Shown: positions 2,698-17,870 of the stretch, piece by piece
Numbering within the stretch: position 1 is the first letter of the stretch
Layout of the letters: each line of letters begins with the position of its first letter
Program-made: the position numbers and the translations under genes
The notes under the pieces: model-generated
What the model was told of the DNA's origin: nothing
The model's database searches: none
What the model saw: only the letters and a program-made list of their open reading frames with translations
Assembly (NCBI GenBank): GCA_964525635.1
Contig: CAZGJX010000013.1
Location: forward strand, 1-51,008
Direction: 5' to 3'
DNA length: 51,008 nt
Origin: an uncultured archaeon
GTDB taxonomy: Archaea; Asgardarchaeota; Lokiarchaeia; Sigyniarchaeales; SOKP01

Positions 2698-3813
2698 TTA
2701 TATATAAATTTTCTTCATAGTTTTTCGATAACGATTATATTTTCGCTTTTCAAAACTTATTACTTTAGCAAGCATTTCTGATTTTTTAATAGATGTATTT
2801 AGATCTGGTGATTCTTGAATATATCCTTCTTTTAAAGCTCCATTATATATCTTTCGTCCAATATTTGTTCTAACAATTGTAGTAGTATATCCATCAGGGG
2901 ATCCTAAACCGCCAAAAGAAATATCTGCATATACATTAGAGAATTCTTTACAAGCAAAACATGCTGGTCTTGCAAATTCATGGATATCTTTGAAATCTAT
3001 ATTTAATATCTTCCCATTCTTAAGTGATATAATTAAATTTTCTTTTATATTTAATTTTTCAACATCATCAAAAGAAAAATCGAATTTTTTTTCTAATTTT
3101 TTATGAGCTTCTTCATCAAATGCAAAATTAAGGTTACAAAATAATCCGATTGTATATTTTACGATATGAGCAGGTAAAATACTTAATTCTTGCATTTTTC
3201 TTATAGACATTATTTGACAAGGAGTTCCCACAACAGCAATATTCATTGTATCTGAACTTACAACTTTTTTTAATTTAGTTATAGTTGGGACAAACGAATT
3301 ATAATGTTCCAATCTAACTACTCCATGAGATAGATCAAAGTGAGATCCTGATGCTTCAATCAATTCTTCTTTAGTAGTGGCAAAAAAGGCTATTCTATTG
3401 AAAGGACCTTGTTTTTTTGAAACTATAGCTCCATTAATTAAGTTCTTTTCTAATAAATAGACTAATATGGCAGTTACAACTCCTCCATCTGTAGCGTCTT
3501 TTCTTATATCCTCATTTTTAGCCTGACTTGAACTAATTTTACTATAATTCCCAATAGATATTTTATAGTTAAATTTTTTTTTCAATTCATCATCTAAAAC
3601 ATGCGTTTGTGGACATATTAGATAACAAATTCCACAATGGAGACAATTATCTTTATTAAAATATTTAGGAGGTCCAGATTCAGACATTTCAATTGCTTTT
3701 ATCTCATCAGCAGAACAAAAACTCACACAACCTCCACATTCTCCACAAATACCTAAATCATGAACATCCTTTATCAAATCCTCAAAAGATTTTGGAAGGA
3801 CTTCTTCTGACAA
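2698..3813 (-). CDS. frhB: Coenzyme F420 hydrogenase/dehydrogenase beta subunit (FrhB/FpoF-like) with N-terminal 2x[4Fe-4S]
   Basis: CGECGGCVSFC and CLHCGICYLICP, then GGVVTAILVYLLE, VGTPCQI, IGLFC, CFAC, ADISFGGLGSPDGYTTTIVRT. Confidence 0.85.
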   Translation of the reverse strand: MSEEVLPKSFEDLIKDVHDLGICGECGGCVSFCSADEIKAIEMSESGPPKYFNKDNCLHCGICYLICPQTHVLDDELKKKFNYKISIGNYSKISSSQAKNEDIRKDATDGGVVTAILVYLLEKNLINGAIVSKKQGPFNRIAFFATTKEELIEASGSHFDLSHGVVRLEHYNSFVPTITKLKKVVSSDTMNIAVVGTPCQIMSIRKMQELSILPAHIVKYTIGLFCNLNFAFDEEAHKKLEKKFDFSFDDVEKLNIKENLIISLKNGKILNIDFKDIHEFARPACFACKEFSNVYADISFGGLGSPDGYTTTIVRTNIGRKIYNGALKEGYIQESPDLNTSIKKSEMLAKVISFEKRKYNRYRKTMKKIYI

Positions 3814-3854
3814 TTTTTTTCAACTCTTTTTTTCTATTTTTTTCTATAATAATT

Positions 3855-4694
3855 TTAATATTCATTTGGTAATTTTTTAAGTTCAGCAAGCGAGAAAACA
3901 GGACCATCTATACAAACAAATTTATTACCTATATTACATCGACCACATTTTCCTATTCCGCATTTCATTCTCATTTCCAGTGAATTTAATATTTGCTCAT
4001 CCTTAAAATTTAACTCTTCAAGAACTGCTATTGTAGTTTTGATCATTATAGGTGGACCACAGACTACTGCTATTGCATTTTCAGGTGATGGAGACACATC
4101 TTTAAGAACAGGAGCAACAAAACCTACTTTTTCTTTCCATCCTTTTTCTTCTTGGTCAATAGTTAAAATTACATTCAAATCATTTCGTTTTTTCCATTTA
4201 TCTAAATCATTACGATATAAAACTTCACCAGAATCACGATTTCCATATATTACAGTTATATCCTTATAATTATTCCTATATTTATTATCTAACATATAAA
4301 TAATAAGTGAGCGTAGAGTAGAAAATGCAAATCCACCTCCTATAACCACAATGTTTTTATTTTTCATTTCATCTATTGGCCAACCATTTCCACATGGTCC
4401 ACGAATTCCAACTATATCTCCAACTTCACAATTATGAAATGCTGTAGTAACACTTCCCATTTTTTTTATTGTAAATTTAATAGAATCCTCTTCTGTCGGA
4501 GATGATGCAATTCCAATGGGACATTCTCCTTTACCAATTAAACTAATTTCAGCAAATTGTCCCGGAATATAAGTAAATGCTTTATAATCTTCCTCTTTTT
4601 TAAAAACTAACTCTAAAGTCTTTAGGTCATTTACTTTATTCTCTGAAACGATATCTTTTATTTCTGTCAATAAAGGTATGTAGGGATTATGCAT
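3855..4694 (-). CDS. flxA: FAD/NAD(P)-binding oxidoreductase, FlxA/AsrB/HydG-like
   Basis: PGQF, GIRGPCGNGW, IGGG, VCGPPIM and CGIGKCGRC..VCIDGPVF [2Fe-2S] motif; last of the flxDCBA order. Confidence 0.82.
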   Translation of the reverse strand: MHNPYIPLLTEIKDIVSENKVNDLKTLELVFKKEEDYKAFTYIPGQFAEISLIGKGECPIGIASSPTEEDSIKFTIKKMGSVTTAFHNCEVGDIVGIRGPCGNGWPIDEMKNKNIVVIGGGFAFSTLRSLIIYMLDNKYRNNYKDITVIYGNRDSGEVLYRNDLDKWKKRNDLNVILTIDQEEKGWKEKVGFVAPVLKDVSPSPENAIAVVCGPPIMIKTTIAVLEELNFKDEQILNSLEMRMKCGIGKCGRCNIGNKFVCIDGPVFSLAELKKLPNEY

Positions 4695-5742
4695 TTACTT
4701 TCTCTTCCTCTTTAATTTTATTTACTTTTTCTATAATTTTTCTTAAATCATTATTGACAGGACATAATTGGATGCAACGACCACATCCAACACATCCCAA
4801 CATATCATAATTCTTAGGATAATAACAAAACTTATGTAATATTCGATTTCTACATCTTTCTATAGAACTATCTCTGGGATTATGTCCACTTGTATGGAGT
4901 GTATATAGACAAAATTGACATGTATCCCAGATTCTTATACGTCTACCACGATTATTATATTGATCATTCTCATCAATAACATCAAAACATGTACAAGTGG
5001 GACATAAAAAGGAACAAATTCCACATCCCATACATATATCACTTATTTCTGTCCATATCGGATGGTCGAAACTTTGTTCTAAAATCTTTTCTATATCCTT
5101 TACATCTAATTTAGTTTTAAATGATTCTTCGGCTTTTTTAGATAGTTCTTCACCTTTCTGTATATCAGCTTTAGTAGACTTAGATAACCAAGTCAATTTT
5201 TCTAACATATTTTTTCCTTTGTCACTAATACCTTCAACTAAATATTTTTCACCTAAATCAATCATGAAAATATCTAAATAATCACTTTTAAAAGGATGAC
5301 CATTTACAGAGGTACAAAAACATGTAGATTTTGGAATATTACATCCTATCCCTATTAGTACAGTATTTTCCTTTTTTTTTAAAAATAAATTATCTTTAAT
5401 ATCTCCTAGAGCAAAGAAATTCTCCATTAACATAAATGCTTGAGCATCACAAGGTCTTATTCCAAATATAATATTATACTCATCTAAATCTTTTCTTTCA
5501 ATAATTTCTTCAATATTCTTGCCATCGGTTTTATACTCAAACAAAGTTTCCATTTTTGGAAATAATATTTCCTTAGGTGGTATTTTCGAATTATAAAAAT
5601 CCAAAATTATTTCATCAGGATTTAGTATTTTATTATATATTAAATTCCCTTTATTTATAACTGGAGCATAAAAATTATATTCCTCAGCTAATTCAATATA
5701 AAGTTTTCCTATTTCATTTTTCATTAATATCTTTTGATCCAC
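4687..5742 (-). CDS. flxB: 4Fe-4S dicluster protein, FlxB/AsrA/HydB-like
   Basis: FGIRPCD, CFC, CMGCGICSFLCPTCTCF, RIWDTC, GCVGCGRCIQLCP. Confidence 0.8.
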   Translation of the reverse strand: MDQKILMKNEIGKLYIELAEEYNFYAPVINKGNLIYNKILNPDEIILDFYNSKIPPKEILFPKMETLFEYKTDGKNIEEIIERKDLDEYNIIFGIRPCDAQAFMLMENFFALGDIKDNLFLKKKENTVLIGIGCNIPKSTCFCTSVNGHPFKSDYLDIFMIDLGEKYLVEGISDKGKNMLEKLTWLSKSTKADIQKGEELSKKAEESFKTKLDVKDIEKILEQSFDHPIWTEISDICMGCGICSFLCPTCTCFDVIDENDQYNNRGRRIRIWDTCQFCLYTLHTSGHNPRDSSIERCRNRILHKFCYYPKNYDMLGCVGCGRCIQLCPVNNDLRKIIEKVNKIKEEEKVNA

Positions 5743-5756
5743 CTAGAACCACCTAT

Positions 5757-6788
5757 TTAATTTTCCTCTAACATAAATTCTTCATCATCTTCCATATTAT
5801 AAGCCATCATTGGAGGTAAAAATTTACTATTAAGACCTGAAGTGAAATTGAATCTTTCCTTAACAAGCTTTTCTAGCTTTCTAGTAATCATATTTAAATC
5901 TATACCCATTGGACAGACACTACTACAAGCTCCGCAGGCTACGCATCTACCTGCTAAATGCATTGCTCGAACCAAATGAAATATAATGATGTCAGATAAA
6001 TCGGTTGTTTTCCCAAACCATATTGGTTTATTTTGATCAACAAAGCATAAATTGCAATAGCACATTGGACAAGCTTCTCGACAAGCATAACATCTTATAC
6101 AAGGTTCTAATAATTCCTTAATATATTGCCATTTTTCTTCAGGAGATTTAGATTCAAATTCTTTCAAATCAGAAAAGTCATCATCAATGGATTTCATCTC
6201 TCTAGATTCTCCTATAAAAATATCTTCTAACTCACTATCTTTAGGAGGAGATTTTACCTTACAAACTTTACATAACTCATTTATATATTCATCAAAAGAG
6301 AATTTCTTTTCAAAATCTTTTCCTTTTATCATAATGTTATTTTCTGAAGTGGATACTTCAAATATTTCTTTTTCTCCAATTTCTCTTTCAATACGTTTTC
6401 TATTAACAATTCCATTGCATGAAATACCTATTATCTTTATATTATCTAAATTTAGTTGTTTTTCAACATTTAGATGAATTAGAGCTCTCCCAACACATCC
6501 TTTTGCAATTATTCCGATTTTTAAATCCTCTCCTTTAGGACTTTTAAGTTGAGGAATCCGAGGAACTAAATATTTTGCTAAATTCATATAACATAGATTA
6601 TTCCAGATTAGTTTATTAACTTCATCTATATGTCTTATTATAATCGGTGAAGTACTTAAAGGAGCAGTCCCTTTAGAATATCCCAGAATAGCATCTACTT
6701 TTTTTTCTTGTAATAGATTTCGGGCAATATCTCTTAAATTTTTTTCAATTTCTTTATTTTCAGATTCAATTCCCATTATATTCACCAT
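5757..6788 (-). CDS. flxC: 4Fe-4S protein, FlxC / FdhB-C-terminal-like
   Basis: CIRCYACREACPMCYCNLC, HLAGRCVACGACSSVCP; lies between the mvhD-like and flxB-like genes. True start probably a few codons downstream (MGIES). Confidence 0.75.
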   Translation of the reverse strand: MVNIMGIESENKEIEKNLRDIARNLLQEKKVDAILGYSKGTAPLSTSPIIIRHIDEVNKLIWNNLCYMNLAKYLVPRIPQLKSPKGEDLKIGIIAKGCVGRALIHLNVEKQLNLDNIKIIGISCNGIVNRKRIEREIGEKEIFEVSTSENNIMIKGKDFEKKFSFDEYINELCKVCKVKSPPKDSELEDIFIGESREMKSIDDDFSDLKEFESKSPEEKWQYIKELLEPCIRCYACREACPMCYCNLCFVDQNKPIWFGKTTDLSDIIIFHLVRAMHLAGRCVACGACSSVCPMGIDLNMITRKLEKLVKERFNFTSGLNSKFLPPMMAYNMEDDEEFMLEEN

Positions 6789-7231
6789 TTTTTTTCAAAT
6801 TTCTTGTTTGGTCCTAATTCTTTTACTATTTTTGTTGCTTTTCTAATTAAAACAGCAAATCGTTCACCTTCTGCTGCAGATACCCACATAAAATTTACTC
6901 TTCCGGGATCTATACCAAAAAATTCCAATAATTCTTTTAAGATAGCAAATCTTCTCCTCGCTACGAGATTTCCTGTAAGATAATGACAATCTCCTGGATG
7001 ACAGCCAGAGATTACGACTCCATCCCATCCATCAGTTAAACTTTTAATTATAAAATAAGGATTTACTCTTCCAGAACAGGGTACTCTAACTACTCTTATA
7101 TTTGGAGGATATTGAATCCTACTAACTCCTGCTAGATCCGCGCCAGCATAAGAGCACCAATTGCATAAAAAAGCAATTATTTTTGGTTCCCATTCTTTGA
7201 TTTTTTTTTCCTTTTCTGCTTGTATTGTCAT
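6782..7231 (-). CDS. mvhD: MvhD/FlxD [2Fe-2S] hydrogenase delta-type subunit
   Basis: AFLCNWCSYAGADLAG, RVPCSGRV, GCHPGDCHY. Confidence 0.93.
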   Translation of the reverse strand: MTIQAEKEKKIKEWEPKIIAFLCNWCSYAGADLAGVSRIQYPPNIRVVRVPCSGRVNPYFIIKSLTDGWDGVVISGCHPGDCHYLTGNLVARRRFAILKELLEFFGIDPGRVNFMWVSAAEGERFAVLIRKATKIVKELGPNKKFEKKW

Positions 7232-7234
7232 TTT

Positions 7235-10200
7235 TTAAAACCTCCCAGTTATCATAGCAAATATTTGCTCGCCTGTGAATCCAAGTACATCGATGGCAGA
7301 GCAACGACAATTACCAGAGCATGCACCACAACCTTTGCAGAGTGCTTGATTGATATAAGCAACAGTACCAAATCGTCGATCTTCAATAAGATCAATAGCA
7401 TTATAAGCACAATTTTCAATACACATTCCACAAGCAATACAACGCTCAGGAATGACTTTTGCTGTTTTTCCTTCAGCTTCAATTTCATTTTTTGATAAGA
7501 TTGTACATGCTCTTGAAACGGTAGCATTTGCTTGAGCAATAGAATCTTCTATTGTTTTGGGACAATGTGCTATACCTGCCACAAAAACGCCCTCAGTTGC
7601 AAAATCAACAGGTCTGAGCTTTACGTGTGCTTCCAAAAAGAAGTTATCATCATTTAGTGGAACTTTTAGCATTTTAGCAAGTATTTCATTTTCTTCTCTA
7701 TCAGCATATATTCCAGTACTTAATACACAGAGATCAGTATTAATATAAAAAATATCCTTTTTTGGAGTTGTTACCTTTATTTTTAGGTTTAAATCTTCTG
7801 GTATTATTTCTGGTATATCATTTTCATCATATCTTAGGAATATAACTCCAAGTTCTCTTGCTTGTCTATAATATTTCTCTTTAAAACCATATGTTCGAAT
7901 ATCTCTAAAGAGAATTATTATCTCTAAATTTGGTTTTGCTTTTTTTGCCAGAATTGCATTCTTGATTGCTTCAGCACAACACATTTTGCTGCAATATGGG
8001 TGTTCCTCATTTCTAGAACCCACGCATTGAATCATCACAATTGAGTTACTATTCTGGATTTCATTGGAAGTATTAAGTCTTTTTTCAAATTCAGATTGAA
8101 GAATTACTTTATCATTATCTCCAAATAAGAATTCCTTGGGTTGGTATTCTTTTGCACCAGTTGCTAAAATAACAACTCCATGCTCAAATTCGGTATTTTC
8201 TTTATTTTTACCATAAGATATTTTTGTTTTAAAATTACCAATATAACCATCAATATTGTCTATTTTTGCATTAGTATAGACATGAATATTTTTGTTTGAT
8301 TTGACTTCTTGAATTAAATTTGATAGAAATACCTGTACATCTCCTCCCTCTAATGTACAATATATATTTTTTGAAAATCCACCTAATTCACTTTCTTTTT
8401 CTATTAAATATGTTTCAAATTGTTGATTGGCCAAATTAAGAGCTGCGGTCATCCCACTTATTCCACCTCCAATTACTAAGACTTTTTGGGTTACATTTAA
8501 TTTAATTCTTTCAATTGGTTCAATTTCTCTAGCTTTATTAACTGCCATTCTTACAAGATCCTTAGCTTTTTCTGTTGCTGCCTCTGGTTCATTCATATGC
8601 ACCCAAGAGCATTGATCTCTTATATTTGCCATTTGAAATAAATATCGATTTAGACCTGCTTCTCGAATTGTTTCTTGAAATAATGGTTCATGAGTTCGTG
8701 GTGTACATGATGCAACAATAACTCGATTTAGATGATATTCCTTAATTTTATCTTTTATAATTGTCTGAGTATCCGCTGAACAAGTATATAAATTACGATC
8801 AGCAAGTACTACATTTGGTAAGGATTTAGCATATTTAGTAACTTCTGGAACATCTACAAAACCTCCTATATTTATCCCACAATGACAAATAAAAACTCCT
8901 ATTCGTGGAGGTTGGCCATTTATATAAATTTCAGGTGGTAACGTCTTCTCTGTGATTAATGTCCCTCTTTTCTCATATAAAAGTTGATTTACACAACCAG
9001 ATGCAGCACTAGCTTGAGTCACAGTATCAGGAATGTCTTTTGGTGAAGAAAATGCTCCACAAACAAAGATTCCTGGCTTTAAAGTTTGCACTGTGTTAAA
9101 TACATCTGTTTTAGCAAAATCAAATTCATTTAGTTCTACTCCAAATTTCTGACCTAAATATTTTGCATCATTAGGAGGATTTAATCCTACAGAGAGTACA
9201 ACCAAATGAAAATCTTCTTCTTTTATTTCACCATCCTCTGTTTCATATTTAATTCTTAAATCTTTAGTTTCTGGTATTTCAGATACAGATGAAATACGAC
9301 TTCTTATATATTTTACACTATATTGCTCTTGAGCTCTTAAAATATACTTATCAAAATCTTTTCCATATGCTCTTATATCCATACTGAAAATTGTTGGTTT
9401 AATTTGATGCATGTGTTCATGGGCAATTACAGCTTCTTTAGCCGTATACATACAACAGACTGAAGAGCAATACGGCTTCCCACTTCCTGTGCAATCTCGT
9501 GAGCCTACACATTGAAGAAATGCTACTTTTTCTGGAATATCTCCATCTGAAGGACGTAAAACTCTTCCAGCATAGGGTCCACTTGCACTTAGAATTCTTT
9601 CGAATTCTATGCTGGTTATAACATTTTTATATTTCCCATACCCATAATGATTATCTTGTGGAGGAATATATTCATCAAATCCTGGGGCTAAAACAATAGC
9701 ACCTACATTTAAATCAATTTTTTCATCTTCTCTCTCATATTCTACAGCTTTCGCTTTACATACTCCTTCGCAGATACCACATCCTATACAGTAATCTTTA
9801 TTTATTGCATAAACAAGTGGTACTGCTTGTGGATATTTTACATTAGTCGCGGCAAATTTTGTTAAACTCTCATTAAATATATCTATTGCTTCAACGGGGC
9901 ATTCTCGACCGCAAACTCCACATCCAGTACATTTTTCTGGATTGATAAATAATGATTTATTTAAAATTTTAACATGAAAATTTCCAGCCTCTCCAGTTAC
10001 TTGTTCAATTTTAGTATTAATGAAAAGATCTATATTTTGATGTCGACCTGTCTCGACTAATTTTGGCGATAGAATGCACATTGCGCAATCATTAGTTGGA
10101 AATGTTTTATCCAATTGAGCCATAACTCCACCAATACTAGTGCTGGATTCAATTAAATAGACTTTATAACCCGAATCAGCTAAATCTAATGATGTTTGAG

Positions 10201-10249
10201 ATCCTCCAATTCCGGCACCTACAACTAAAACAGCTCCTACTTTTTCCAT
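7235..10249 (-). CDS. hdrA: Heterodisulfide reductase subunit A-like, fused double-FAD-domain form (1004 aa)
   Basis: Two GxGxxG Rossmann motifs, DKTFPTNDCAMC, two QCVGSR..YCSxxCC motifs, internal IGVFICHCG..ASCTPRTHE domain, ferredoxin motifs. Confidence 0.93.
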   Translation of the reverse strand: MEKVGAVLVVGAGIGGSQTSLDLADSGYKVYLIESSTSIGGVMAQLDKTFPTNDCAMCILSPKLVETGRHQNIDLFINTKIEQVTGEAGNFHVKILNKSLFINPEKCTGCGVCGRECPVEAIDIFNESLTKFAATNVKYPQAVPLVYAINKDYCIGCGICEGVCKAKAVEYEREDEKIDLNVGAIVLAPGFDEYIPPQDNHYGYGKYKNVITSIEFERILSASGPYAGRVLRPSDGDIPEKVAFLQCVGSRDCTGSGKPYCSSVCCMYTAKEAVIAHEHMHQIKPTIFSMDIRAYGKDFDKYILRAQEQYSVKYIRSRISSVSEIPETKDLRIKYETEDGEIKEEDFHLVVLSVGLNPPNDAKYLGQKFGVELNEFDFAKTDVFNTVQTLKPGIFVCGAFSSPKDIPDTVTQASAASGCVNQLLYEKRGTLITEKTLPPEIYINGQPPRIGVFICHCGINIGGFVDVPEVTKYAKSLPNVVLADRNLYTCSADTQTIIKDKIKEYHLNRVIVASCTPRTHEPLFQETIREAGLNRYLFQMANIRDQCSWVHMNEPEAATEKAKDLVRMAVNKAREIEPIERIKLNVTQKVLVIGGGISGMTAALNLANQQFETYLIEKESELGGFSKNIYCTLEGGDVQVFLSNLIQEVKSNKNIHVYTNAKIDNIDGYIGNFKTKISYGKNKENTEFEHGVVILATGAKEYQPKEFLFGDNDKVILQSEFEKRLNTSNEIQNSNSIVMIQCVGSRNEEHPYCSKMCCAEAIKNAILAKKAKPNLEIIILFRDIRTYGFKEKYYRQARELGVIFLRYDENDIPEIIPEDLNLKIKVTTPKKDIFYINTDLCVLSTGIYADREENEILAKMLKVPLNDDNFFLEAHVKLRPVDFATEGVFVAGIAHCPKTIEDSIAQANATVSRACTILSKNEIEAEGKTAKVIPERCIACGMCIENCAYNAIDLIEDRRFGTVAYINQALCKGCGACSGNCRCSAIDVLGFTGEQIFAMITGRF

Positions 10250-10261
10250 ATTTTTTAATCC

Positions 10262-11023
10262 CTATAATGTTATAAACATTGGTGTATTTTTTATAATTTC
10301 ACCAAAATCTACTTGATTTCTACCTTTTAAACTTAATATATGTTCTAATACAATACTTGGATCAATATTCAATTCTTTTGCTAAATCTTTTACAGATTTA
10401 GAATCCATTTTTAAAGATATTAGAATTCTATGTCGTTCATACTCATCTTTAATAGCTTGGTCAAATAAATTATTAAATTTATCTTCAGGATATTTTTCTC
10501 CATATACATTTTCCTGCTCTGTTATTACTCTCTGTCTACCTACTAAAGCTCTTATTCTATTATTACTTACTGACATTTGAATGGCTTTCAATTTGTTAAG
10601 TAGATCTTGATTTGGTTTTTCTCCACTTAATGGAGATGGTCCAAGTGCTCTAATATCTTCCACAAATTTAGATACCAACTCACCAAATCTCTGTCCTTCT
10701 GAAGCAGAAACCCAATCCAGTCTGATTCGATCATCTAATCCAATAATTTTTAGGAATTTTTTAGTCATGTCAAACTTTTTAACTGCCTCATAATTTCCTT
10801 CTAGATAATGGCAATCACCAATATGACATCCCATTACATAAACACCATCAATTCCTAATTCTAAAGCTTTAATAATAAATTTTGGATCAACACGACCACT
10901 ACACATTACCCTAATAACTCTCATGTTTGGGGGGTATTGTATTCTACTGACCCCCGCTAGATCTGCTCCAGCATAAGAGCACCAATTACATAAAAATCCT
11001 AAAAGTTTGGGTTCAAAACTCAT
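10262..11023 (-). CDS. mvhD: MvhD domain fused to a helical linker and C-terminal winged-HTH-like domain
   Basis: FLCNWCSYAGAD, VMCSGRV, GCHIGDCHY; C-terminal SVKDLAKELNIDPSIVLEHILSLK. Confidence 0.85.
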   Translation of the reverse strand: MSFEPKLLGFLCNWCSYAGADLAGVSRIQYPPNMRVIRVMCSGRVDPKFIIKALELGIDGVYVMGCHIGDCHYLEGNYEAVKKFDMTKKFLKIIGLDDRIRLDWVSASEGQRFGELVSKFVEDIRALGPSPLSGEKPNQDLLNKLKAIQMSVSNNRIRALVGRQRVITEQENVYGEKYPEDKFNNLFDQAIKDEYERHRILISLKMDSKSVKDLAKELNIDPSIVLEHILSLKGRNQVDFGEIIKNTPMFITL

Positions 11024-11028
11024 TTTTA

Positions 11029-12714
11029 TTAACCTCCAAATGCTAGAATTTCAGAAATTATTTGTTCATCTGTAAAATGTCTAATTACTATCGCATTACG
11101 GGTACACGTTGCCCCACATAAGCCACATCCTTTACACAATGCTTCAATAATTTCAATTTCATCATCCTTATTTTTCCTAATAGCGTTGTATGGACATATT
11201 TTTATACATATTTCACATCCAGAGCATAAAGATTTATTATATTCAGGTAAATTAGAAGTAGCTCCTTCAACCTCTATAGTTGCATGAGACAAAATTGTAC
11301 TTGCTCTTGCTGCTGCTGAATATCCCTGAGTAATTGCTTCTGAAATATCCACTGGCCATTTAGCTGATCCCCCAATAAATATACCATCAGTTGCAAAATC
11401 ACTTGGTCTTAATTTTACATGAGCCTCTAAAAAGAAATTATTTGCTTCTGTTGGTACTTTTAACATCTGAGCAAGTTCTTTATTATCTTCATTTGCTACT
11501 AAAGGAGTTGATAAAACTAAAAGATCATATGGAATAAGAACCTCTTTGTTAATATATTCATTAAATACAACAACTTGATTTTCTTCGATAGTTGGTATCC
11601 TCTCAACATCATATTTTATGAATATTATCCCTTCTTTTCTTGCTCGATCATAATATTCTTCATATTCTGTTCCAGGTGTATAAATATCTCTAAATAAAAT
11701 AGTTATATTCACATTTGGATTTTGTTCTTTTATAATTAAAGCGTTTTTTAATGCTGTCATACAACACACACTTGAACAATAAAGTCTTTTTTCATTTCGA
11801 GAACCTACACACTGTATCATTACCACGTTCTTTTTTGTTACTTTTTCTTTTATTAATAATGTTTCTAATTCGTATTGAGTAATTCTTTTTATTCCATCAT
11901 ATCCAAATAATCCTTTTGGGTTTAAAAGAGATGAACCAACTGCAACTATAATTGTTCCGATTTCGATTTTTTGTACATTTCCATTCTGTTCAATTTCTAC
12001 TTTAAAATTACCTACAAATCCATCAACATTTTTAATTTTAGATGATGTTAATACATTTAAATTTCGATTATTTTTTATCTTTTTAATAAAATTTTCAATA
12101 AATTCTGATGCTTTAATACTATAAGGAAATAATTTATAGAGTGAATTTAACCTACCACCTAGTTTATCTTCTTTTTCAACTAAATAAGTTTTAAATCCTT
12201 GATTACTTAAATTTAAGGCTGCACTCATTCCAGCAACTCCTCCACCAATTACTAGGGCAGTAGGATTAATATTAACTTTAATACAATCTAATGGTTCTAG
12301 CTTTGCTGCTTTAGCTACTCCCATTTTTACAAGATCCATTGCTTTGTCATATGCTCCTTCTGGATCTTTCATATGAACCCATGAGCATTGATCCCTTATA
12401 TTTACAAAATTAAATAGATATTGATTTAATCCTGCTTCTGAAATACATTCTCTAAATAATGGTTCATGTGTTCTTGGAGTACAAGATGCAACAACGACTC
12501 TGTTTAGGTCGTATTCCTTGATTGCATTTTTAATGCATGACAAACCTGTCTCAGAACATGTATATAAGTTGTCTTCACTATGAATAACATTTGGTAATTT
12601 GCCAGCATATTCAGTTATTTTTTTACAATCAATTAAACCTCCTATATTACTACCACAATGACAGATAAAAACACCGATCTTTATTTTCCGATCTTTCTCT
12701 TTATTTTCAGACAT
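11029..12714 (-). CDS. hdrA: HdrA-like flavoprotein (QmoB-like half; matches the C-terminal half of the 1004-aa HdrA)
   Basis: IGVFICHCG, ASCTPRTHEPLF, GGGVAG, QCVGSR..YCSSVCC, C-terminal 2x[4Fe-4S]. Start placed at ATG 12714 behind a GGAGATG RBS. Confidence 0.9.
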   Translation of the reverse strand: MSENKEKDRKIKIGVFICHCGSNIGGLIDCKKITEYAGKLPNVIHSEDNLYTCSETGLSCIKNAIKEYDLNRVVVASCTPRTHEPLFRECISEAGLNQYLFNFVNIRDQCSWVHMKDPEGAYDKAMDLVKMGVAKAAKLEPLDCIKVNINPTALVIGGGVAGMSAALNLSNQGFKTYLVEKEDKLGGRLNSLYKLFPYSIKASEFIENFIKKIKNNRNLNVLTSSKIKNVDGFVGNFKVEIEQNGNVQKIEIGTIIVAVGSSLLNPKGLFGYDGIKRITQYELETLLIKEKVTKKNVVMIQCVGSRNEKRLYCSSVCCMTALKNALIIKEQNPNVNITILFRDIYTPGTEYEEYYDRARKEGIIFIKYDVERIPTIEENQVVVFNEYINKEVLIPYDLLVLSTPLVANEDNKELAQMLKVPTEANNFFLEAHVKLRPSDFATDGIFIGGSAKWPVDISEAITQGYSAAARASTILSHATIEVEGATSNLPEYNKSLCSGCEICIKICPYNAIRKNKDDEIEIIEALCKGCGLCGATCTRNAIVIRHFTDEQIISEILAFGG

Positions 12715-12719
12715 ATTTT

Positions 12720-14027
12720 TTAACATCTCCTTATTATTTCAGCTGCTCTTGCTGCTGCACCACTAGCTTCAGCTACAGAGCGTGGAATGTCCATTGGTTC
12801 GTGTACACATCCACAAGTAAAAATACCTTCCTTACTTGTCTCTACTGGGATATAGGGTGTTGTTTTTATAAAACTATATTTATTTAATTCAATTCCTAAA
12901 ATATCAGCTAATTTTTCAATTCCTTGCGGGGGGATAATACAACTAGCTAAAACTACTAGATCAACTTTCATTTCTCTAATTTCTTCAGTATCTAAATCTT
13001 CATAAACAATGATAGGATTTTCTTCTTGATCTATTGTTATTTCAGCGATTTTACTTTTAATATAACTGATATTATATTCCGTTTGCCCTCTTCGTAGAAA
13101 AGATTGAAATCCTTTTCCCCCTGCTCTCATATCTATATAGAATACATATGATTCTAATTCATTATCATGTTCATAGGCAATCATCGCTTCTTTTGTTGTA
13201 TACATACAACATATTGAGGAACAATATTTTTTTATTCTTTCTGAACGAGAGCCAATACATTGAAGAAATGCTATTTTCTTCGGAGTTTTTCCATCAGAGA
13301 AGCGTTTAATATGGCCTCCTTGAGGACCTGAAGCACATTCTAATCGTTCGAATTCTATTGCTGAAACAACATTTCTAAATTTATTATATCCATAGTTATT
13401 TAGAATTTCTTTATCAATATCCTCAATCAAATTATATCCCGTAGCAACAATTATAGAACCTATATTTTCTAATTTAACAATTTCATCTTTTTGTTCAAAA
13501 TCGATAGCATCTTTCTCACAAGTTTTTTCACAGATTCTACATGCATTCTTTGTAAACCAAAGACAATTATCTCTATCGATTGTCATAATTGCTGGAACAC
13601 CTTGGAGATAATACATATATATAGCTCTTCTTTTCCTTAACCGACGATCAAATTCATCATTAACTCGCATTGGACATTTCTCAACACAAACTCCACAATT
13701 AATACATGCGTCCTCTTTAATATATCTAGCTTTTTTTAATATTTCAACTGAATAATTCCCAGCTGAACCTTCTAATTTTTGAATTTCTGAATAAGAATAT
13801 AATTTGATATTAGGATGACGATAACATTCAGATAATTTTGGAGCTAAAATACAAATTGAACAATCATTTGTGGGAAAGGTTTTATCTAACTGTGCCATTT
13901 TACCGCCTATACATGGTTTCCTCTCCACCATATTAACTTGAATTTCCATATCTGCTAAATCTAATGATGCCTGAATACCGGCGATACCGCCACCTATTAC
14001 TAAAACACTTTTAGATATCTTATTCAT
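12720..14027 (-). CDS. hdrA: HdrA-like flavoprotein (QmoA-like half with inserted ferredoxin; matches the N-terminal half of the 1004-aa HdrA)
   Basis: GGGIAG, DKTFPTNDCSIC, CINCGVCVEKCP, QCIGSR..YCSSICCMY. Confidence 0.9.
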   Translation of the reverse strand: MNKISKSVLVIGGGIAGIQASLDLADMEIQVNMVERKPCIGGKMAQLDKTFPTNDCSICILAPKLSECYRHPNIKLYSYSEIQKLEGSAGNYSVEILKKARYIKEDACINCGVCVEKCPMRVNDEFDRRLRKRRAIYMYYLQGVPAIMTIDRDNCLWFTKNACRICEKTCEKDAIDFEQKDEIVKLENIGSIIVATGYNLIEDIDKEILNNYGYNKFRNVVSAIEFERLECASGPQGGHIKRFSDGKTPKKIAFLQCIGSRSERIKKYCSSICCMYTTKEAMIAYEHDNELESYVFYIDMRAGGKGFQSFLRRGQTEYNISYIKSKIAEITIDQEENPIIVYEDLDTEEIREMKVDLVVLASCIIPPQGIEKLADILGIELNKYSFIKTTPYIPVETSKEGIFTCGCVHEPMDIPRSVAEASGAAARAAEIIRRC

Positions 14028-14071: not shown

Positions 14072-14947
14072 TTACAAAGTAAATTGAATGCTTTCAAATA
14101 GAAGATTAGGTTTTATTCTATGAAAATTAAAACCTAATTCCGTAGGATTGAATCCAAATGCTAAGGCAACTAATTCCGAAAGATAAAATACAGGAAATTT
14201 ATATTCTGAATTATTCTTTTTATTAAGTTCTTTCTGATTGAATTCAAATTGTTGATAGCAAGCAGGACATACAACAACTACGCAATTAGCTCCTGCTGCC
14301 TGAATAGCTTTCAATTTATTATCTATAATTTGAAGTGATAATTCTTTATCTGCTTTTTCAACAGGGTTACCACAACATTCAAGTTTTAAATCATAATCAA
14401 TAGATTCAGCTCCAAGAGATTTAATAACTTCATCAATAGTTATTGGTTCAAAAGGATCATCCCAATTAATTATCTCTGAAGGGCGTAAATAGTGACATCC
14501 ATAATGTACAGCCACTTTAAATCCTTCTAAAGATCGCACAATATTTTCTTTAATTTTTTCAATATTTTGATAAAGTATTTGAGCAAAATGATTTACATTT
14601 ACGTCTCCGTCGTAACTCTTTCCTATTTTTTGAAGATTTTGATTAACCTCTTTTTTAACTACAGAGTCTTTATTTATAAAATAATTTACACCTTTTAACG
14701 TTTCGACACATCCAGAACAAAATGATATAACTCCATCATTTTTGTTACATAAACTTAGATTCCTTGCTCCTAAAGCAAGCCAAGTTTCATGGTCTAGTTG
14801 TTCAATACCTGTGGGATCAGGACAACAACTAAAACCTTCTACATCTCTTAGTTCAATTCCAAGTTTTTCAAAAACTTTTCGAGAAGAAGCTTCTAAATAT
14901 GGTAGTCTAGCAGGAATTACACATCCTAAAAATAAGTCATATACCAT
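14072..14947 (-). CDS. hdrB: Heterodisulfide reductase subunit B
   Basis: FLGC, SCCPDP, CSGC, HYGCH, CCG, CPAC (two CCG domains). Confidence 0.93.
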   Translation of the reverse strand: MVYDLFLGCVIPARLPYLEASSRKVFEKLGIELRDVEGFSCCPDPTGIEQLDHETWLALGARNLSLCNKNDGVISFCSGCVETLKGVNYFINKDSVVKKEVNQNLQKIGKSYDGDVNVNHFAQILYQNIEKIKENIVRSLEGFKVAVHYGCHYLRPSEIINWDDPFEPITIDEVIKSLGAESIDYDLKLECCGNPVEKADKELSLQIIDNKLKAIQAAGANCVVVVCPACYQQFEFNQKELNKKNNSEYKFPVFYLSELVALAFGFNPTELGFNFHRIKPNLLFESIQFTL

Positions 14948-14950
14948 TTT

Positions 14951-15448
14951 TTACTCCTCTTTTTTTTTTAAGTTTTTATTAAAAGTTGTAGCCTTCATTA
15001 AAGATTGTATATCTTCTATAGGAGCTGTTATTATATTGGGAAGTCCTAGTTTTTCTCTTCTTGATAAGATTGCTTTTGAATATGGAATTGCGATACCATT
15101 ATCAAATACTGTTTGAGCTTGGATCAAAAATGATTCTGGTAATTTTCCCTCATCAAAGCATAAATTCTTTATTAATTCGAAAATTGATGTTAATTCAACT
15201 TTTTGTGGACATAACTCTACACATTTTTGACATGTAGAACATAACCAAACACTCGGGATTTGATCTTCAATTAATTCCTTTTGAAGCCCTAATATTGCCA
15301 ATTCAATTATCTTTCTAGGATTATATTTCCCATTTGTTAATAAAGCTATAGGACATCCACTTGAACATGTAGCACATTGATAACAATAACTTAATGAGGC
15401 ATTATGACCTAGAACTTGATTTCTAAAATCAAAATTAATTAAACTCAT
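14951..15448 (-). CDS. hdrC: Heterodisulfide reductase subunit C
   Basis: CYQCATCSSGCP and WLCSTCQKCVELCP; adjacent to hdrB. Confidence 0.93.
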   Translation of the reverse strand: MSLINFDFRNQVLGHNASLSYCYQCATCSSGCPIALLTNGKYNPRKIIELAILGLQKELIEDQIPSVWLCSTCQKCVELCPQKVELTSIFELIKNLCFDEGKLPESFLIQAQTVFDNGIAIPYSKAILSRREKLGLPNIITAPIEDIQSLMKATTFNKNLKKKEE

Positions 15449-15487
15449 GTGTATGTTTCTTTTCTTATTTTTTTTTTAATATAAATC

Positions 15488-15751
15488 TTATTTTTCTCCC
15501 AATTGTTTTTTTAGATCAATAAATATTGGAATTTTATTTTTGTTTTGTTCTATAACCACTTCTAAAATTCCATCCTTTATTGACGCAGAAATAGGATGAA
15601 AAGTACTTGTTTTGTTTTCCTTTTTAGTTTTAGTATTTAAACAAGTTCTCTTTTCATCGTATAATATACAATTAGAACAACAAAAACCCTCTGGCATATA
15701 TCCTACTATTGAACATTGATCATAATTATTACAGTTACAATTATTACACAT
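15488..15751 (-). CDS. Small 8-Cys protein (87 aa), first gene before hdrC
   Basis: MCNNCNCNNYDQCSIVGYMPEGFCCSNCILYDEKRTC; paralog at 16008-16169; ends 39 nt before hdrC. Confidence 0.85.
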   Translation of the reverse strand: MCNNCNCNNYDQCSIVGYMPEGFCCSNCILYDEKRTCLNTKTKKENKTSTFHPISASIKDGILEVVIEQNKNKIPIFIDLKKQLGEK

Positions 15752-15779
15752 TTAATACCACACTCAATAATTTTTAATA

Positions 15780-15834
15780 TGAGACTATTTATTTTGAATT
15801 TATATAATATCAAAAACTTTATTTTTAAGTCTCA
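15780..15834 (-). promoter_or_regulatory. Putative TATA box flanked by nested inverted repeats
   Basis: TTATATAAA (minus, 15799-15807) inside TTTTGA/TCAAAA (15792-97/15810-15) and TGAGACT/AGTCTCA (15780-86/15828-34), about 50 nt upstream of ATG 15751. Confidence 0.4.
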
Positions 15835-16007
15835 GTATATATTTAGGAGATAATTTTCAATCCTAATTCTTACTTTTTATTAGTAATTATAATCATTAAT
15901 TTGGAAATTTTATATCAACAAAATTCCTCTGTAATTTTTTTCCTTAGTTTTTAATGTCAATTATTTTAATGATAATGATTACCTATTTGGAATTATTTGA
16001 ATAAGAT

Positions 16008-16169
16008 TTAAGGAAAGAATTTAATTGACTGGTTATGTATTTCTAACTTATAATGAGAACACTTTTCATTAGGATCGTAATGTAAACATTTCTCACAACA
16101 AAAACCAATAGGTAAATATCCTATAATTGAACATTTTTCTTCATTATCACATTCACAATGATTACACAT
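16008..16169 (-). CDS. Unannotated 53-aa 8-Cys microprotein, paralog of 15488-15751
   Basis: Hand translation gives MCNHCECDNEEKCSIIGYLPIGFCCEKCLHYDPNEKCSHYKLEIHNQSIKFFP*. GTGAT RBS upstream; Cys spacing identical to the neighbour. Confidence 0.85.
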   Translation of the reverse strand: MCNHCECDNEEKCSIIGYLPIGFCCEKCLHYDPNEKCSHYKLEIHNQSIKFFP

Positions 16170-16454
16170 TTTTTAATCACAATAAAAAATTTTTTCCTGT
16201 GATATAATTAGGACATTTTAATATTTAAATATGATCAATTTCGTAATTGTATGATATAATGATAATGAAGATTGATAAAAAAATAAACTCTCATAAACAA
16301 AAAAAATAGAATCTAATAAAAATGATCATAAACTACTTATGATACAATAAAAATTGATATTATAATATAGAGTTGTATTTCTATTTAAATATTATTAAAT
16401 AAATAATAATCTAGAATAAAAAAAAAGGAACCAAATTAAGGTGAAGAAAAGAAA

Positions 16455-16757
16455 ATGGTATTTTATATGGTAACATTTACTTATCCTCCAAATAAAGTAA
16501 AAGAAGTAGGACAAACATTTTTATCAAAAAGAGACGTCAAATTACCTAATTATATAAAACCATCTGGAGTTTATATTGTAATGGATAAAGATATTAAAAG
16601 TTATGTCATTTATGAAGTTGAGGATAATAGGTCTCATGAAGGTTTTATAGCTATTGTGAATAGATTTACTGAATATTTCGATATTGAAGGATCAAAATTC
16701 AAAATAGAGCATCTTCTAACTACAAATGAAGCACTGGGTTTAATTGGATTAGATTAA
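16455..16757 (+). CDS. Small hypothetical protein (DUF3303/GYD-like ferredoxin-type fold)
   Basis: 100 aa, GGTGA RBS, alternating beta/alpha pattern ending LLTTNEALGLIG. Confidence 0.6.
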   Translation: MVFYMVTFTYPPNKVKEVGQTFLSKRDVKLPNYIKPSGVYIVMDKDIKSYVIYEVEDNRSHEGFIAIVNRFTEYFDIEGSKFKIEHLLTTNEALGLIGLD

Positions 16758-16970
16758 AAATTATTTATATATTATTTATAATTTTTTTTTTCCAATTAAT
16801 TTTATTAATTAGTCCTTTTCAACTACCAAAAAAAGTATCCTGATAATAAACCTTTATTATTATTTACAATAAAAATTATAAATGAAAATATAAATTAGAA
16901 TTTATATTGATATTATAAAATTTTCAATAATTCAATTAGTAAAATATTAAAAAAAAAAAAAGTGATTTAT

Positions 16971-17870
16971 TTGGCAAAAAAAAAAAGTACTGAAAGCAGT
17001 ACAAAAAAAACTACAACTAAAAAGCCTGCGACCCAGAAAAGTAGTGCTAAGAAGCCAGAAGCCAAAACTAAAGGAGTAGATCAGCGGCAGACTAAGAAGA
17101 AAATAAAAGTAAACTTTTGGAGAACGCGGCTCCACGATGAAGAACTCGGGATTCACCAACAACTTAAATATCAAGCAAAAACAAGATGGTTTTCAAAAAA
17201 CTTTGATATTGAAGGAATCATAGAAATTGATGGTAAAAAAGAATATATTATTGCATTTAATAAAGAAGAATGGGAAGAAACTCCAGAAGATAAGCAAAAA
17301 CGACTAAATCTTCGTGTCTTTACAATAATGGAAGAATCTCTAAACGTTGGACAGGGAGGTAATTATAAAGGAGGAATAGAATGGAGTGTAGCTCATTCTT
17401 TGCTTCAATCTTTTGAAAATGGACGCATATCTCCTGTATTCTATGTTCAACTTCCAGGAATAAAAAGTATTATTCCTATATCTGCTGGATGGAGATTGAA
17501 AGGAACTCGTTATACATGGCCTCTCCTTCCTGAAGATAAAGATGATAAATTCCAAGTTGTAAAAGCTAAAGGAGTTGTTGGTTTGGGAAGAGATTTTGAA
17601 TTATTCCTAGGAGACATTAAAGTAGGGAGAATTGATAATCAACGTCTTCAAAATGAGTTTGAAATTGAGATCTATGATGAAAATCTTGCAAAAGATAAAA
17701 CATTCATACATACGATATTATTATTTGCATGTGGTGCTCAATTTCTGGAAGAAATTGAAGATATAATTAAAAAATATTTTAAAATGATGGAAAAGACAGG
17801 AACTACAGATTATAAAATTCCTAAAGCTGAAATGGATTTATTTAGAAATCCACGAATGATGAGGAGATAA
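16971..17870 (+). CDS. Hypothetical protein with Lys-rich N-terminal tail, possible Tubby-C/LURP-one-like barrel
   Basis: About 300-aa ORF, likely TTG start after GTGAT. C-terminal beta-meander (GRDFELFLGDIKVGRID..FEIEIYD) followed by a hydrophobic helix. Confidence 0.6.
   Translation: MAKKKSTESSTKKTTTKKPATQKSSAKKPEAKTKGVDQRQTKKKIKVNFWRTRLHDEELGIHQQLKYQAKTRWFSKNFDIEGIIEIDGKKEYIIAFNKEEWEETPEDKQKRLNLRVFTIMEESLNVGQGGNYKGGIEWSVAHSLLQSFENGRISPVFYVQLPGIKSIIPISAGWRLKGTRYTWPLLPEDKDDKFQVVKAKGVVGLGRDFELFLGDIKVGRIDNQRLQNEFEIEIYDENLAKDKTFIHTILLFACGAQFLEEIEDIIKKYFKMMEKTGTTDYKIPKAEMDLFRNPRMMRR

Follow-up and report, generated by a model that had tools for sequence, protein, structure and literature searches.

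Eight-cysteine microproteins encoded beside the Hdr-Flx-FrhB operon of Lokiarchaeia

Complexes of the Flx-Hdr and Mvh-Hdr types hold a central place in the way syntrophic energy metabolism of Asgard archaea is currently modelled. FlxABCD-HdrABC was invoked for syntrophy by Imachi et al., who described FlxABCD itself as an oxidoreductase 'of unknown function' (10.1101/726976). The window analysed here, a stretch of 51,008 nucleotides from the genome of an uncultured member of the Lokiarchaeia, carries an operon of this kind on its minus strand, headed by two short open reading frames that are rich in cysteine codons. This arrangement raises the question of whether such short frames are genuine genes, whether they belong with the operon that follows them, and what proteins of 53 and 87 residues might contribute to an electron-bifurcating complex.

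Two microprotein genes at the head of an operon

The features of the locus, listed from 5' to 3' on the minus strand, are as follows.

16170..16454 (minus strand): region 5' of the 53-aa gene, common to a divergent plus-strand ORF of 100 aa
16008..16169 (minus strand): 53-aa microprotein; Cys module (aa 1-37) and a short tail ending ...KFFP, of the 'FP/YP-ending' class
15752..16007 (minus strand): AT-rich intergenic spacer of 256 nt, with TATA-like and SD-like elements 5' of the 87-aa gene
15488..15751 (minus strand): 87-aa microprotein, the long form or 'class A'; Cys module, Lys-rich linker and C-terminal beta domain
15641..15751 (minus strand): aa 1-37 of the 87-aa protein, its eight-Cys module, with C2, C5, C7, C13, C24, C25, C28 and C37
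15500..15604 (minus strand): aa 50-84 of the 87-aa protein, a C-terminal domain predicted to be a three-stranded beta meander and short helix
14951..15448 (minus strand): hdrC, a 2x[4Fe-4S] ferredoxin-like protein (Pfam Fer4_8, E 1.6e-11)
14072..14947 (minus strand): hdrB, with two CCG domains (Pfam CCG, E 1.6e-25, two stretches)
2698..14027 (minus strand): remainder of the operon, assigned by Pfam, with its gene order given below

Both short frames contain, at the positions reported in the first-pass annotation, the ungapped motif M-C-x2-C-x-C-x5-C-S-I-x-G-Y-x-P-x-G-F-C-C-x2-C-x2-Y-D-x4-C, and a BLASTP comparison of the two proteins (24 of 53 residues identical, ungapped, E 3e-18) establishes that their genes are true paralogs, far beyond chance. 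The gap of 39 nt that had been claimed between the end of the 87-aa gene and the start of hdrC is also exact (15488 versus 15448). Local GC content around both frames is 16-35%, so that long open frames rich in TGT and TGC are unlikely to have arisen by chance, and the region from 15300 to 17000 has no match to an Rfam RNA family. These two genes are the only copies of their family in the genome. The data sets listed as holding the locus are all DNA metagenomes, from salt marsh and in one case from soil, with no RNA data set among them.

The 53-aa frame had been described as unannotated. It does fall below the ORF cutoff used by the earlier reader; however, NCBI annotates its ortholog in the closest MAG (KGD57_00545), which, judging from consecutive locus tags, apparently adjoins the ortholog of the 87-aa gene (KGD57_00550). 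The locus offers another case of functional genes lying under the usual ORF cutoffs.

The TATA-like and SD-like elements that were reported upstream of the two genes are present in the sequence: TTTAAATA begins 60 nt ahead of the ATG of the 53-aa gene and GTGAT lies 6-10 nt ahead of it. Similar elements recur 5' of relatives, in the form of TATA 8-mers and SD-like 4-mers, a recurrence that is confounded by relatedness; because the intergenic DNA is only 16-24% GC and the comparison is among related genomes, such promoter-like elements constitute weak evidence. Neither of two divergent ORFs on the plus strand (16455-16757, 100 aa, and 16962-17870, 302 aa) matches a model in Pfam or NCBIfam; the longer of them has a homolog of 56% identity that also adjoins a cysteine gene in the genome G173 (locus L095).

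Downstream of hdrC and hdrB, the operon encodes in succession a split HdrA (435 and 565 aa), an MvhD-HTH protein, a fused HdrA (1004 aa), FlpD/MvhD, FlxC-like, FlxB-like and FlxA-like proteins, and a terminal FrhB-like protein of 371 aa; the full 11-gene order is kept in the genomes G169 and G184. In many relatives, hdrB is separated from the first hdrA by a second FrhB paralog that shares approximately 35% identity with the FrhB-like protein closing the operon (for example at L077:15205-16308 and in many loci of genera g11 and g12); the operon of the window has no such paralog. The earlier reader took this organism to be of a lineage not known to have Mcr; in its genome, for which marker genes indicate 100% completeness, neither McrA nor DsrC was found.

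A narrow family under purifying selection

Searches with the 87-aa protein recovered 59 full-length homologs at E <= 1e-21, all of them 84-100 aa in length and conserved from end to end; wherever a source names them, the name is 'hypothetical protein', from Lokiarchaeota, Promethearchaeota or Thorarchaeota. When 1.84 billion representative proteins were searched exhaustively by HMMER with a Cys-module profile, only 69 proteins emerged, and in nearly all of them the chain is 49-110 aa long and opens with the module at residue 1. Across 400 genomes of the phylum, a full-length family profile (A1) found matches in 111, of which 104 fall within the window's own family (104 of its 134 genomes), and matches are rare elsewhere in the phylum. 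The 53-aa protein has orthologs of the same length that share its ...FFP end (P0066, 77% identical, and P0062, 85%). One 616-aa sequence (P0131), listed as a 'cluster member' of the 53-aa ortholog, resembles in sequence an NAD-dependent malic enzyme, and was set aside as a database mis-join. The profile search and synteny comparison that the first-pass annotation had proposed yielded homologs that are restricted to Asgard archaea and strongly tied to hdr/flx loci; the two genes of the window would belong to a new family of acidic microproteins restricted to Lokiarchaeia.

Conservation within the family is concentrated in the cysteine module. An alignment of 91 sequences displays invariant C2, C5, C13, C25 and C28, together with M1, C7, S14, G17, C24 and C37 at 90% conservation or more. 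Ratios of dN/dS between orthologs, calculated by the Nei-Gojobori method, range from 0.05 to 0.34 across long and short copies; values for the long form are mostly 0.05-0.23 (with 0.56 for one near-identical pair) and those for the short copies are 0.11-0.27. The earlier proposal of selection at the protein level is supported, and eight cysteines are retained across the 91 sequences while the spacers vary. Both frames are thus genuine genes kept by purifying selection, and the family to which they belong exists, is narrow, and is restricted to Asgard archaea. Its members are acidic, with a median pI of 5.4-5.8 and a median net charge of -2.

A series of comparisons against known families and folds supports the earlier description of an undescribed group of Cys-rich microproteins. 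Neither protein of the window matches a Pfam or NCBIfam model, and no family common to 57 members emerged when they were scanned against Pfam at a loose threshold. A sequence-profile search of the PDB gave only a non-significant strand match to an sHSP (E 4.2), Foldseek against the PDB returned nothing at E <= 0.001, VIA-align over 48,161 chains returned nothing at Z >= 2, and the C-terminal domain of the 87-aa protein has no significant structural neighbour. In the ESM Atlas, matches were confined to the family's own Promethearchaeota clusters. If the module binds metal, it would be a new minimal design for doing so, to which no solved structure is detectably related.

Members of the family consist of an N-terminal Cys module of approximately 40 residues, nearly always starting Met1-Cys2, followed by a variable tail. 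The tail of the long form has the consensus ..IEDGxLKVVV....IDLxKQL, with I58, G61, L63, V65, I78, D79, L80 and K82 conserved, and is modelled by AlphaFold at a pLDDT of about 85 as a three-stranded meander and short helix. Other classes of tail include those ending in FP or YP (9 of 51 full-length representatives), those with a ninth cysteine in the sequence ILPxxFCLK, and several that are rarer, and many members of just 49-60 aa have almost no tail at all. Copies number one to three per genome and stand in tandem, the short forms lying upstream of the long one; a triplet of paralogs of 58, 76 and 92 aa is found at the loci L022, L098 and L101. The description of the two genes as 'twin' microproteins understates a family arranged in arrays of one to three paralogs with differing tails, in which the long form has a second, well-predicted, beta-rich domain at its C-terminus.

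Association with the operon across genomes

A survey of gene neighbourhoods in 72 genomes of the window's family demonstrated that the cysteine genes adjoin hdrC-hdrB in 61 of them, lying co-directionally upstream in 27 and divergently in 34. Two further genomes place the gene beside a version of the operon that lacks hdrB, and in which hdrC is absent or only partially matched; in seven the gene is found elsewhere (four of these belonging to genus g2), and in the last two a cut contig hides the neighbourhood. The hdrC orthologs that adjoin the cysteine genes in the 61 genomes are 64-75% identical, and the hdrB orthologs of linked loci are 69-81% identical. Where spacers were measured in co-directional loci, the distance to hdrC is approximately 190-310 nt, as compared to a gap of 3-13 nt between hdrC and hdrB, which points to separate expression of the cysteine genes; the microproteins would then be produced from their own promoters beside the operon.

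The association also extends to patterns of joint presence and absence. Among 17 genomes of the window's family that have no match to the family profile, 13 possess only HdrB paralogs of 47% identity or less, in contrast to the 69-81% observed at linked loci. Within the window's own genus, its three closest relatives (G158, G159 and G160) lack the long form and possess only HdrB paralogs at or below the same 47%; two of the three keep a lone short form, which in the one examined lies beside an ORF unrelated to hdr, a pattern suggesting that the locus is patchily distributed among members of the genus. Taken with the neighbourhoods, such co-occurrence ties the family to the operon.

Arrangements in other families of the class preserve proximity while changing its form. 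The gene lies upstream of hdrC in G144, two copies lie beside a relocated frhB, 2.6 kb from hdrC, in G129, and two copies follow flxA in convergent orientation, at the 3' end of the operon, in G125. Lrp/AsnC-type regulators directly adjoin the cysteine genes in both G129 (L121) and G125 (L122). In the 99% complete genome G227, an intact, divergent long form stands beside an operon without hdrCB (L112, G227:C1:322250-328550); in this operon and its counterpart in G229 (L113), where the divergent long form is likewise intact, hdrB is missing and the first gene is an FrhB paralog, with hdrA next. Of hdrC, the G227 operon contains only a partial match, and G227 has no HdrB ortholog elsewhere in the genome at E <= 1e-95.

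One explanation for a small gene that faces an operon is that its product regulates it. The module might sense redox state or metal in the manner of SoxR, with the tail dimerising, binding DNA or binding a transcription factor, and this account would suit the divergent orientation and common control region found in 34 genomes, the SoxR-type spacing of the cysteines, and the persistence of the gene at the 5' end of the operon despite the loss of hdrCB. A partial GerE/LuxR-type tail in P0060 (E 2.5e-4) points in the same direction, but comes from a single sequence on a contig of 590 nt, and no DNA-binding domain was found in the family with Pfam or NCBIfam. Furthermore, many members of 49-60 aa are nearly without a tail, the family has a median net charge of -2 (a low pI being characteristic of ferredoxins and not of DNA binders), tandem sets of two to three paralogs and insertion into an enzyme are unusual for regulators, and bona fide Lrp/AsnC regulators already adjoin the genes in G125 and G129. 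A sensing role is consequently a slim prospect.

The insertion into an enzyme just mentioned is found in P0125/P0129 (identical in NCBI as MHA1299075.1), where the eight-Cys module forms a clean insertion of 46 aa at residues ~152-197, between the FrhB_N and FrhB_C domains of a protein that also has an N-terminal 2x[4Fe-4S] domain. This host protein is 27% identical to the last gene of the window's operon (E 2e-36), and is 27% identical to both of the FrhB paralogs that occur in hdr-flx operons; no close relative of it was found in 400 Asgard genomes. This domain order indicates that the module does not require a free N-terminus. That the microproteins are functionally connected with the complex is supported by three things together: proximity maintained through four kinds of rearrangement, co-occurrence with the operon, and insertion into a paralog of an operon subunit.

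Members that lie outside hdr loci adjoin flavin oxidoreductases of the FMN_red, NMO and Pyr_redox_2 types. In genus g2 (L079 and L081-L083), the pair of cysteine genes has an NADPH-dependent FMN reductase on one side and, on the other, a convergent gene for a CxxCxxCC protein (PF03692), and an HdrB of 61-62% identity is encoded on another contig. In G168 (L094, G168:C21:57400-63700), a convergent long form lies 7 nt from the gene for a class-I pyridine-nucleotide disulfide oxidoreductase of 503 aa, with Pyr_redox_2 and Pyr_redox_dim domains, and an AMP-binding enzyme flanks the locus.

The disulfide oxidoreductase beside the G168 gene is of interest for a second alternative, in which the microprotein would be a DsrC-like dithiol/disulfide substrate of HdrB, cycling through pairs of cysteines such as C2 and C5. 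In an organism that has no CoM-S-S-CoB, it would then accept electrons from the bifurcating complex at the high-potential end. The absence of McrA and DsrC from the genome leaves its HdrB, which retains both CCG domains, without a known substrate; the gene adjoins hdrCB in 61 of 72 genomes; and the Met1-Cys2 start places a cysteine at the extreme terminus of the chain, mirroring the penultimate cysteine of DsrC. Against these points, the conservation of eight cysteines instead of two favours metal ligation, the long form persists in G227 where neither hdrCB nor an HdrB ortholog (at E <= 1e-95) is present, and the genes of G125 and G129 are found at the flxA or frhB end of the operon and not beside hdrB. 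The occurrence of the module in the interior of an FrhB-family enzyme and the lack of homology to DsrC also speak against a substrate role, which we judge to be unlikely, if less so than a sensing role.

The cysteine module, its candidate roles and known systems

While the tail of the long form is predicted with confidence, the Cys module is modelled by AlphaFold at a pLDDT of ~45-65 and displays no regular secondary structure (pLDDT 45 in a run with 24 sequences and 63 with 91). That a module should be left unmodelled without a cofactor is as expected of a fold that needs metal.

A subclass with four cysteines provides a possible view of how such metal might be bound. In three sequences (L025:1167-1421, L093:2011-2268 and P0114), C5, C7, C13 and C25 are kept, C2, C24, C28 and C37 are lost, and the class-A tail of the long form is retained. 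On its simplest reading, this pattern suggests two separable, interleaved sites of four cysteines each, C5/C7/C13/C25 and C2/C24/C28/C37, a division that rests on one subclass in three sequences. Such a division would place the adjacent C24 and C25 in different sites, argues for metal sites over a single redox-active pair, and implies that the SoxR-like quartet of cysteines may not form one site. In genus g10 the four-Cys variant occurs in tandem, upstream of a normal eight-Cys long form. The module of the window's long form (15641-15751) also contains a hint of an internal repeat, in which CxxC...YD..C appears twice (C2-C5...Y10-D11..C13 and C25-C28..Y31-D32....C37).

Metal binding by the module, its split into two sites, and a role as a redox partner are all inferred. 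The N-terminal 37-40 residues would form a module stabilised by a metal cluster, and the microproteins would serve as a small redox partner of the electron-bifurcating Hdr-Flx-FrhB complex, as an electron-carrying or adaptor subunit, with the variable tails (the beta meander of the 87-aa protein and the ...FP end of the 53-aa protein) docking the module onto partners. A redox partner with a metal cluster accounts best for the eight cysteines, the four-Cys subclass, the lack of a predictable cofactor-free fold, the acidity of the family and its wholly Fe-S/flavin surroundings, and the retention of the genes beside the operon through many rearrangements likewise suggests that they probably encode one that binds metal. 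Our preference for a metal or Fe-S redox partner is nonetheless tentative, and falls somewhat short of an even chance: the CxxCxxCxxxCP motif and any match to Fer4 are absent, and the genes lie away from hdr in the four genomes of genus g2 and in approximately three others, all of which counts against a carrier. Zn and Fe-S sites are indistinguishable by sequence, and Fe-S is judged somewhat more likely than Zn to be the metal of the module.

Zinc would be the expected metal if the microproteins were instead structural, acting as an assembly factor, stabiliser or scaffold that carries neither electrons nor thiol equivalents. Binuclear Zn domains typically have CxxC knuckles and interleaved, cross-braced sites of four cysteines, and variable tails would suit an adaptor; in addition, the spacing C2-x21-C24-x3-C28 is close to the C-x22-C-x3-C of Asgard YHS domains. 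That last resemblance, however, extends over an alignment of 11 columns at a probability of 5% when profiles are compared, the genomic context is made up wholly of Fe-S and flavin redox enzymes, and no counterpart is known in the Hdr/Flx complexes of methanogens or bacteria. A purely structural zinc protein is in our estimation as doubtful as a sensor.

Should the microproteins instead be what the Asgard Flx-Hdr complex reduces in the cell, as a genome-encoded protein carrier replacing CoM-S-S-CoB or DsrC, they would explain HdrABC-type electron bifurcation in Lokiarchaeia that have neither Mcr nor DsrC, and paralogs with differing tails would route electrons to different partners. The carrier may in that case work through a thiol/disulfide couple, or hold two clusters in a protein of unusually small size. 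We regard such an acceptor role as improbable, to about the same degree as the DsrC-like substrate considered above. A selected family that adjoins the operon through at least four gene arrangements, and co-occurs with it, is a concrete and cheap candidate: its proteins, at 53-95 aa, lend themselves to synthesis or expression, and eight cysteines would give distinct spectroscopic signals.

The module was compared with several known systems. The first-pass annotation had recognised no ferredoxin, rubredoxin or zinc-finger motif in the spacing of the cysteines; as a statement that no known motif fits, this is wrong for the first half of the module: C-x2-C-x-C-x5-C is the [2Fe-2S] motif of SoxR, CX2CXCX5C (PMC8063818). 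The four-Cys spacing (C2, C5, C7, C13) is identical in both proteins of the window and in most of the family, and in both systems a short loop without regular secondary structure occurs in a redox context, binding the cluster in SoxR (PMC8063818) and predicted to do so here. The likeness is one of Cys spacing only. The microproteins have neither a MerR-type HTH nor a coiled coil, and no MerR/HTH match was found among members with Pfam; their module is N-terminal and has four further conserved cysteines, its x5 spacer becomes x7 in one class of tail, and the four-Cys subclass drops the C2 that a strict SoxR-type site would need while keeping C25.

With TRASH, YHS and zf-FCS domains the module shares an F-C-x3-C knuckle with a cysteine ~21 residues upstream, and its C2-x21-C24-x3-C28 falls within the C-x(~19-22)-C-x3-C spacing of TRASH/YHS domains. 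In an hhalign comparison of the family profile A3 with an alignment of 18 YHS sequences, the FC-x3-C knuckle alone aligns, and given its 11 columns at 5% probability, homology with TRASH/YHS domains was rejected and is not claimed. No family member matches the YHS or TRASH models (the sole match to PF04945 is P0127, a non-member), and the gene context is not one of metal homeostasis. Metallothioneins are Cys-rich with few aromatic residues and belong to metal homeostasis; the microproteins conserve F23, Y18 and Y31 and are encoded beside Hdr, Flx and FrhB genes, not metal transporters. The CPxCG-type zinc-finger micro-proteins of Haloferax are archaeal proteins of less than ~100 aa that contain Cys knuckles and are often missed by annotation; the present family is likewise archaeal, small and built around Cys knuckles, but has no CPxCG, displays eight cysteines in a fixed pattern, and is in tight synteny with one redox operon.

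For bacterial Flx-Hdr and for DsrMK, the proposed protein substrate is DsrC, which carries a penultimate cysteine near the C-terminus. The microproteins resemble it as small Cys-bearing proteins with a cysteine at the extreme end of the chain, in an organism without CoM/CoB chemistry. A functional coupling to HdrB/HdrC-type proteins would suit the adjacency to hdrCB in 61 of 72 genomes, but not the retention of the gene in G227 without HdrB. They differ from DsrC in having eight cysteines in an N-terminal module, whereas DsrC has two on a C-terminal arm, in giving no match to PF04358 (Pfam, E <= 1), and in persisting where HdrB is absent.

The clostridial-type 2x[4Fe-4S] ferredoxins are the remaining comparison. 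The microproteins lack the CxxCxxCxxxCP motif and contain C-x-C and CC pairs, their module is shorter by ~15 residues, and among 57 members no match to Fer4 was found at E <= 10, save in the FrhB host of P0125. What the two share is small size, acidity, eight cysteines and, in the predicted layout of the module, a three-plus-one cross-over ligation, and the microprotein genes stand beside an electron-bifurcating complex of a kind that needs a small electron carrier.
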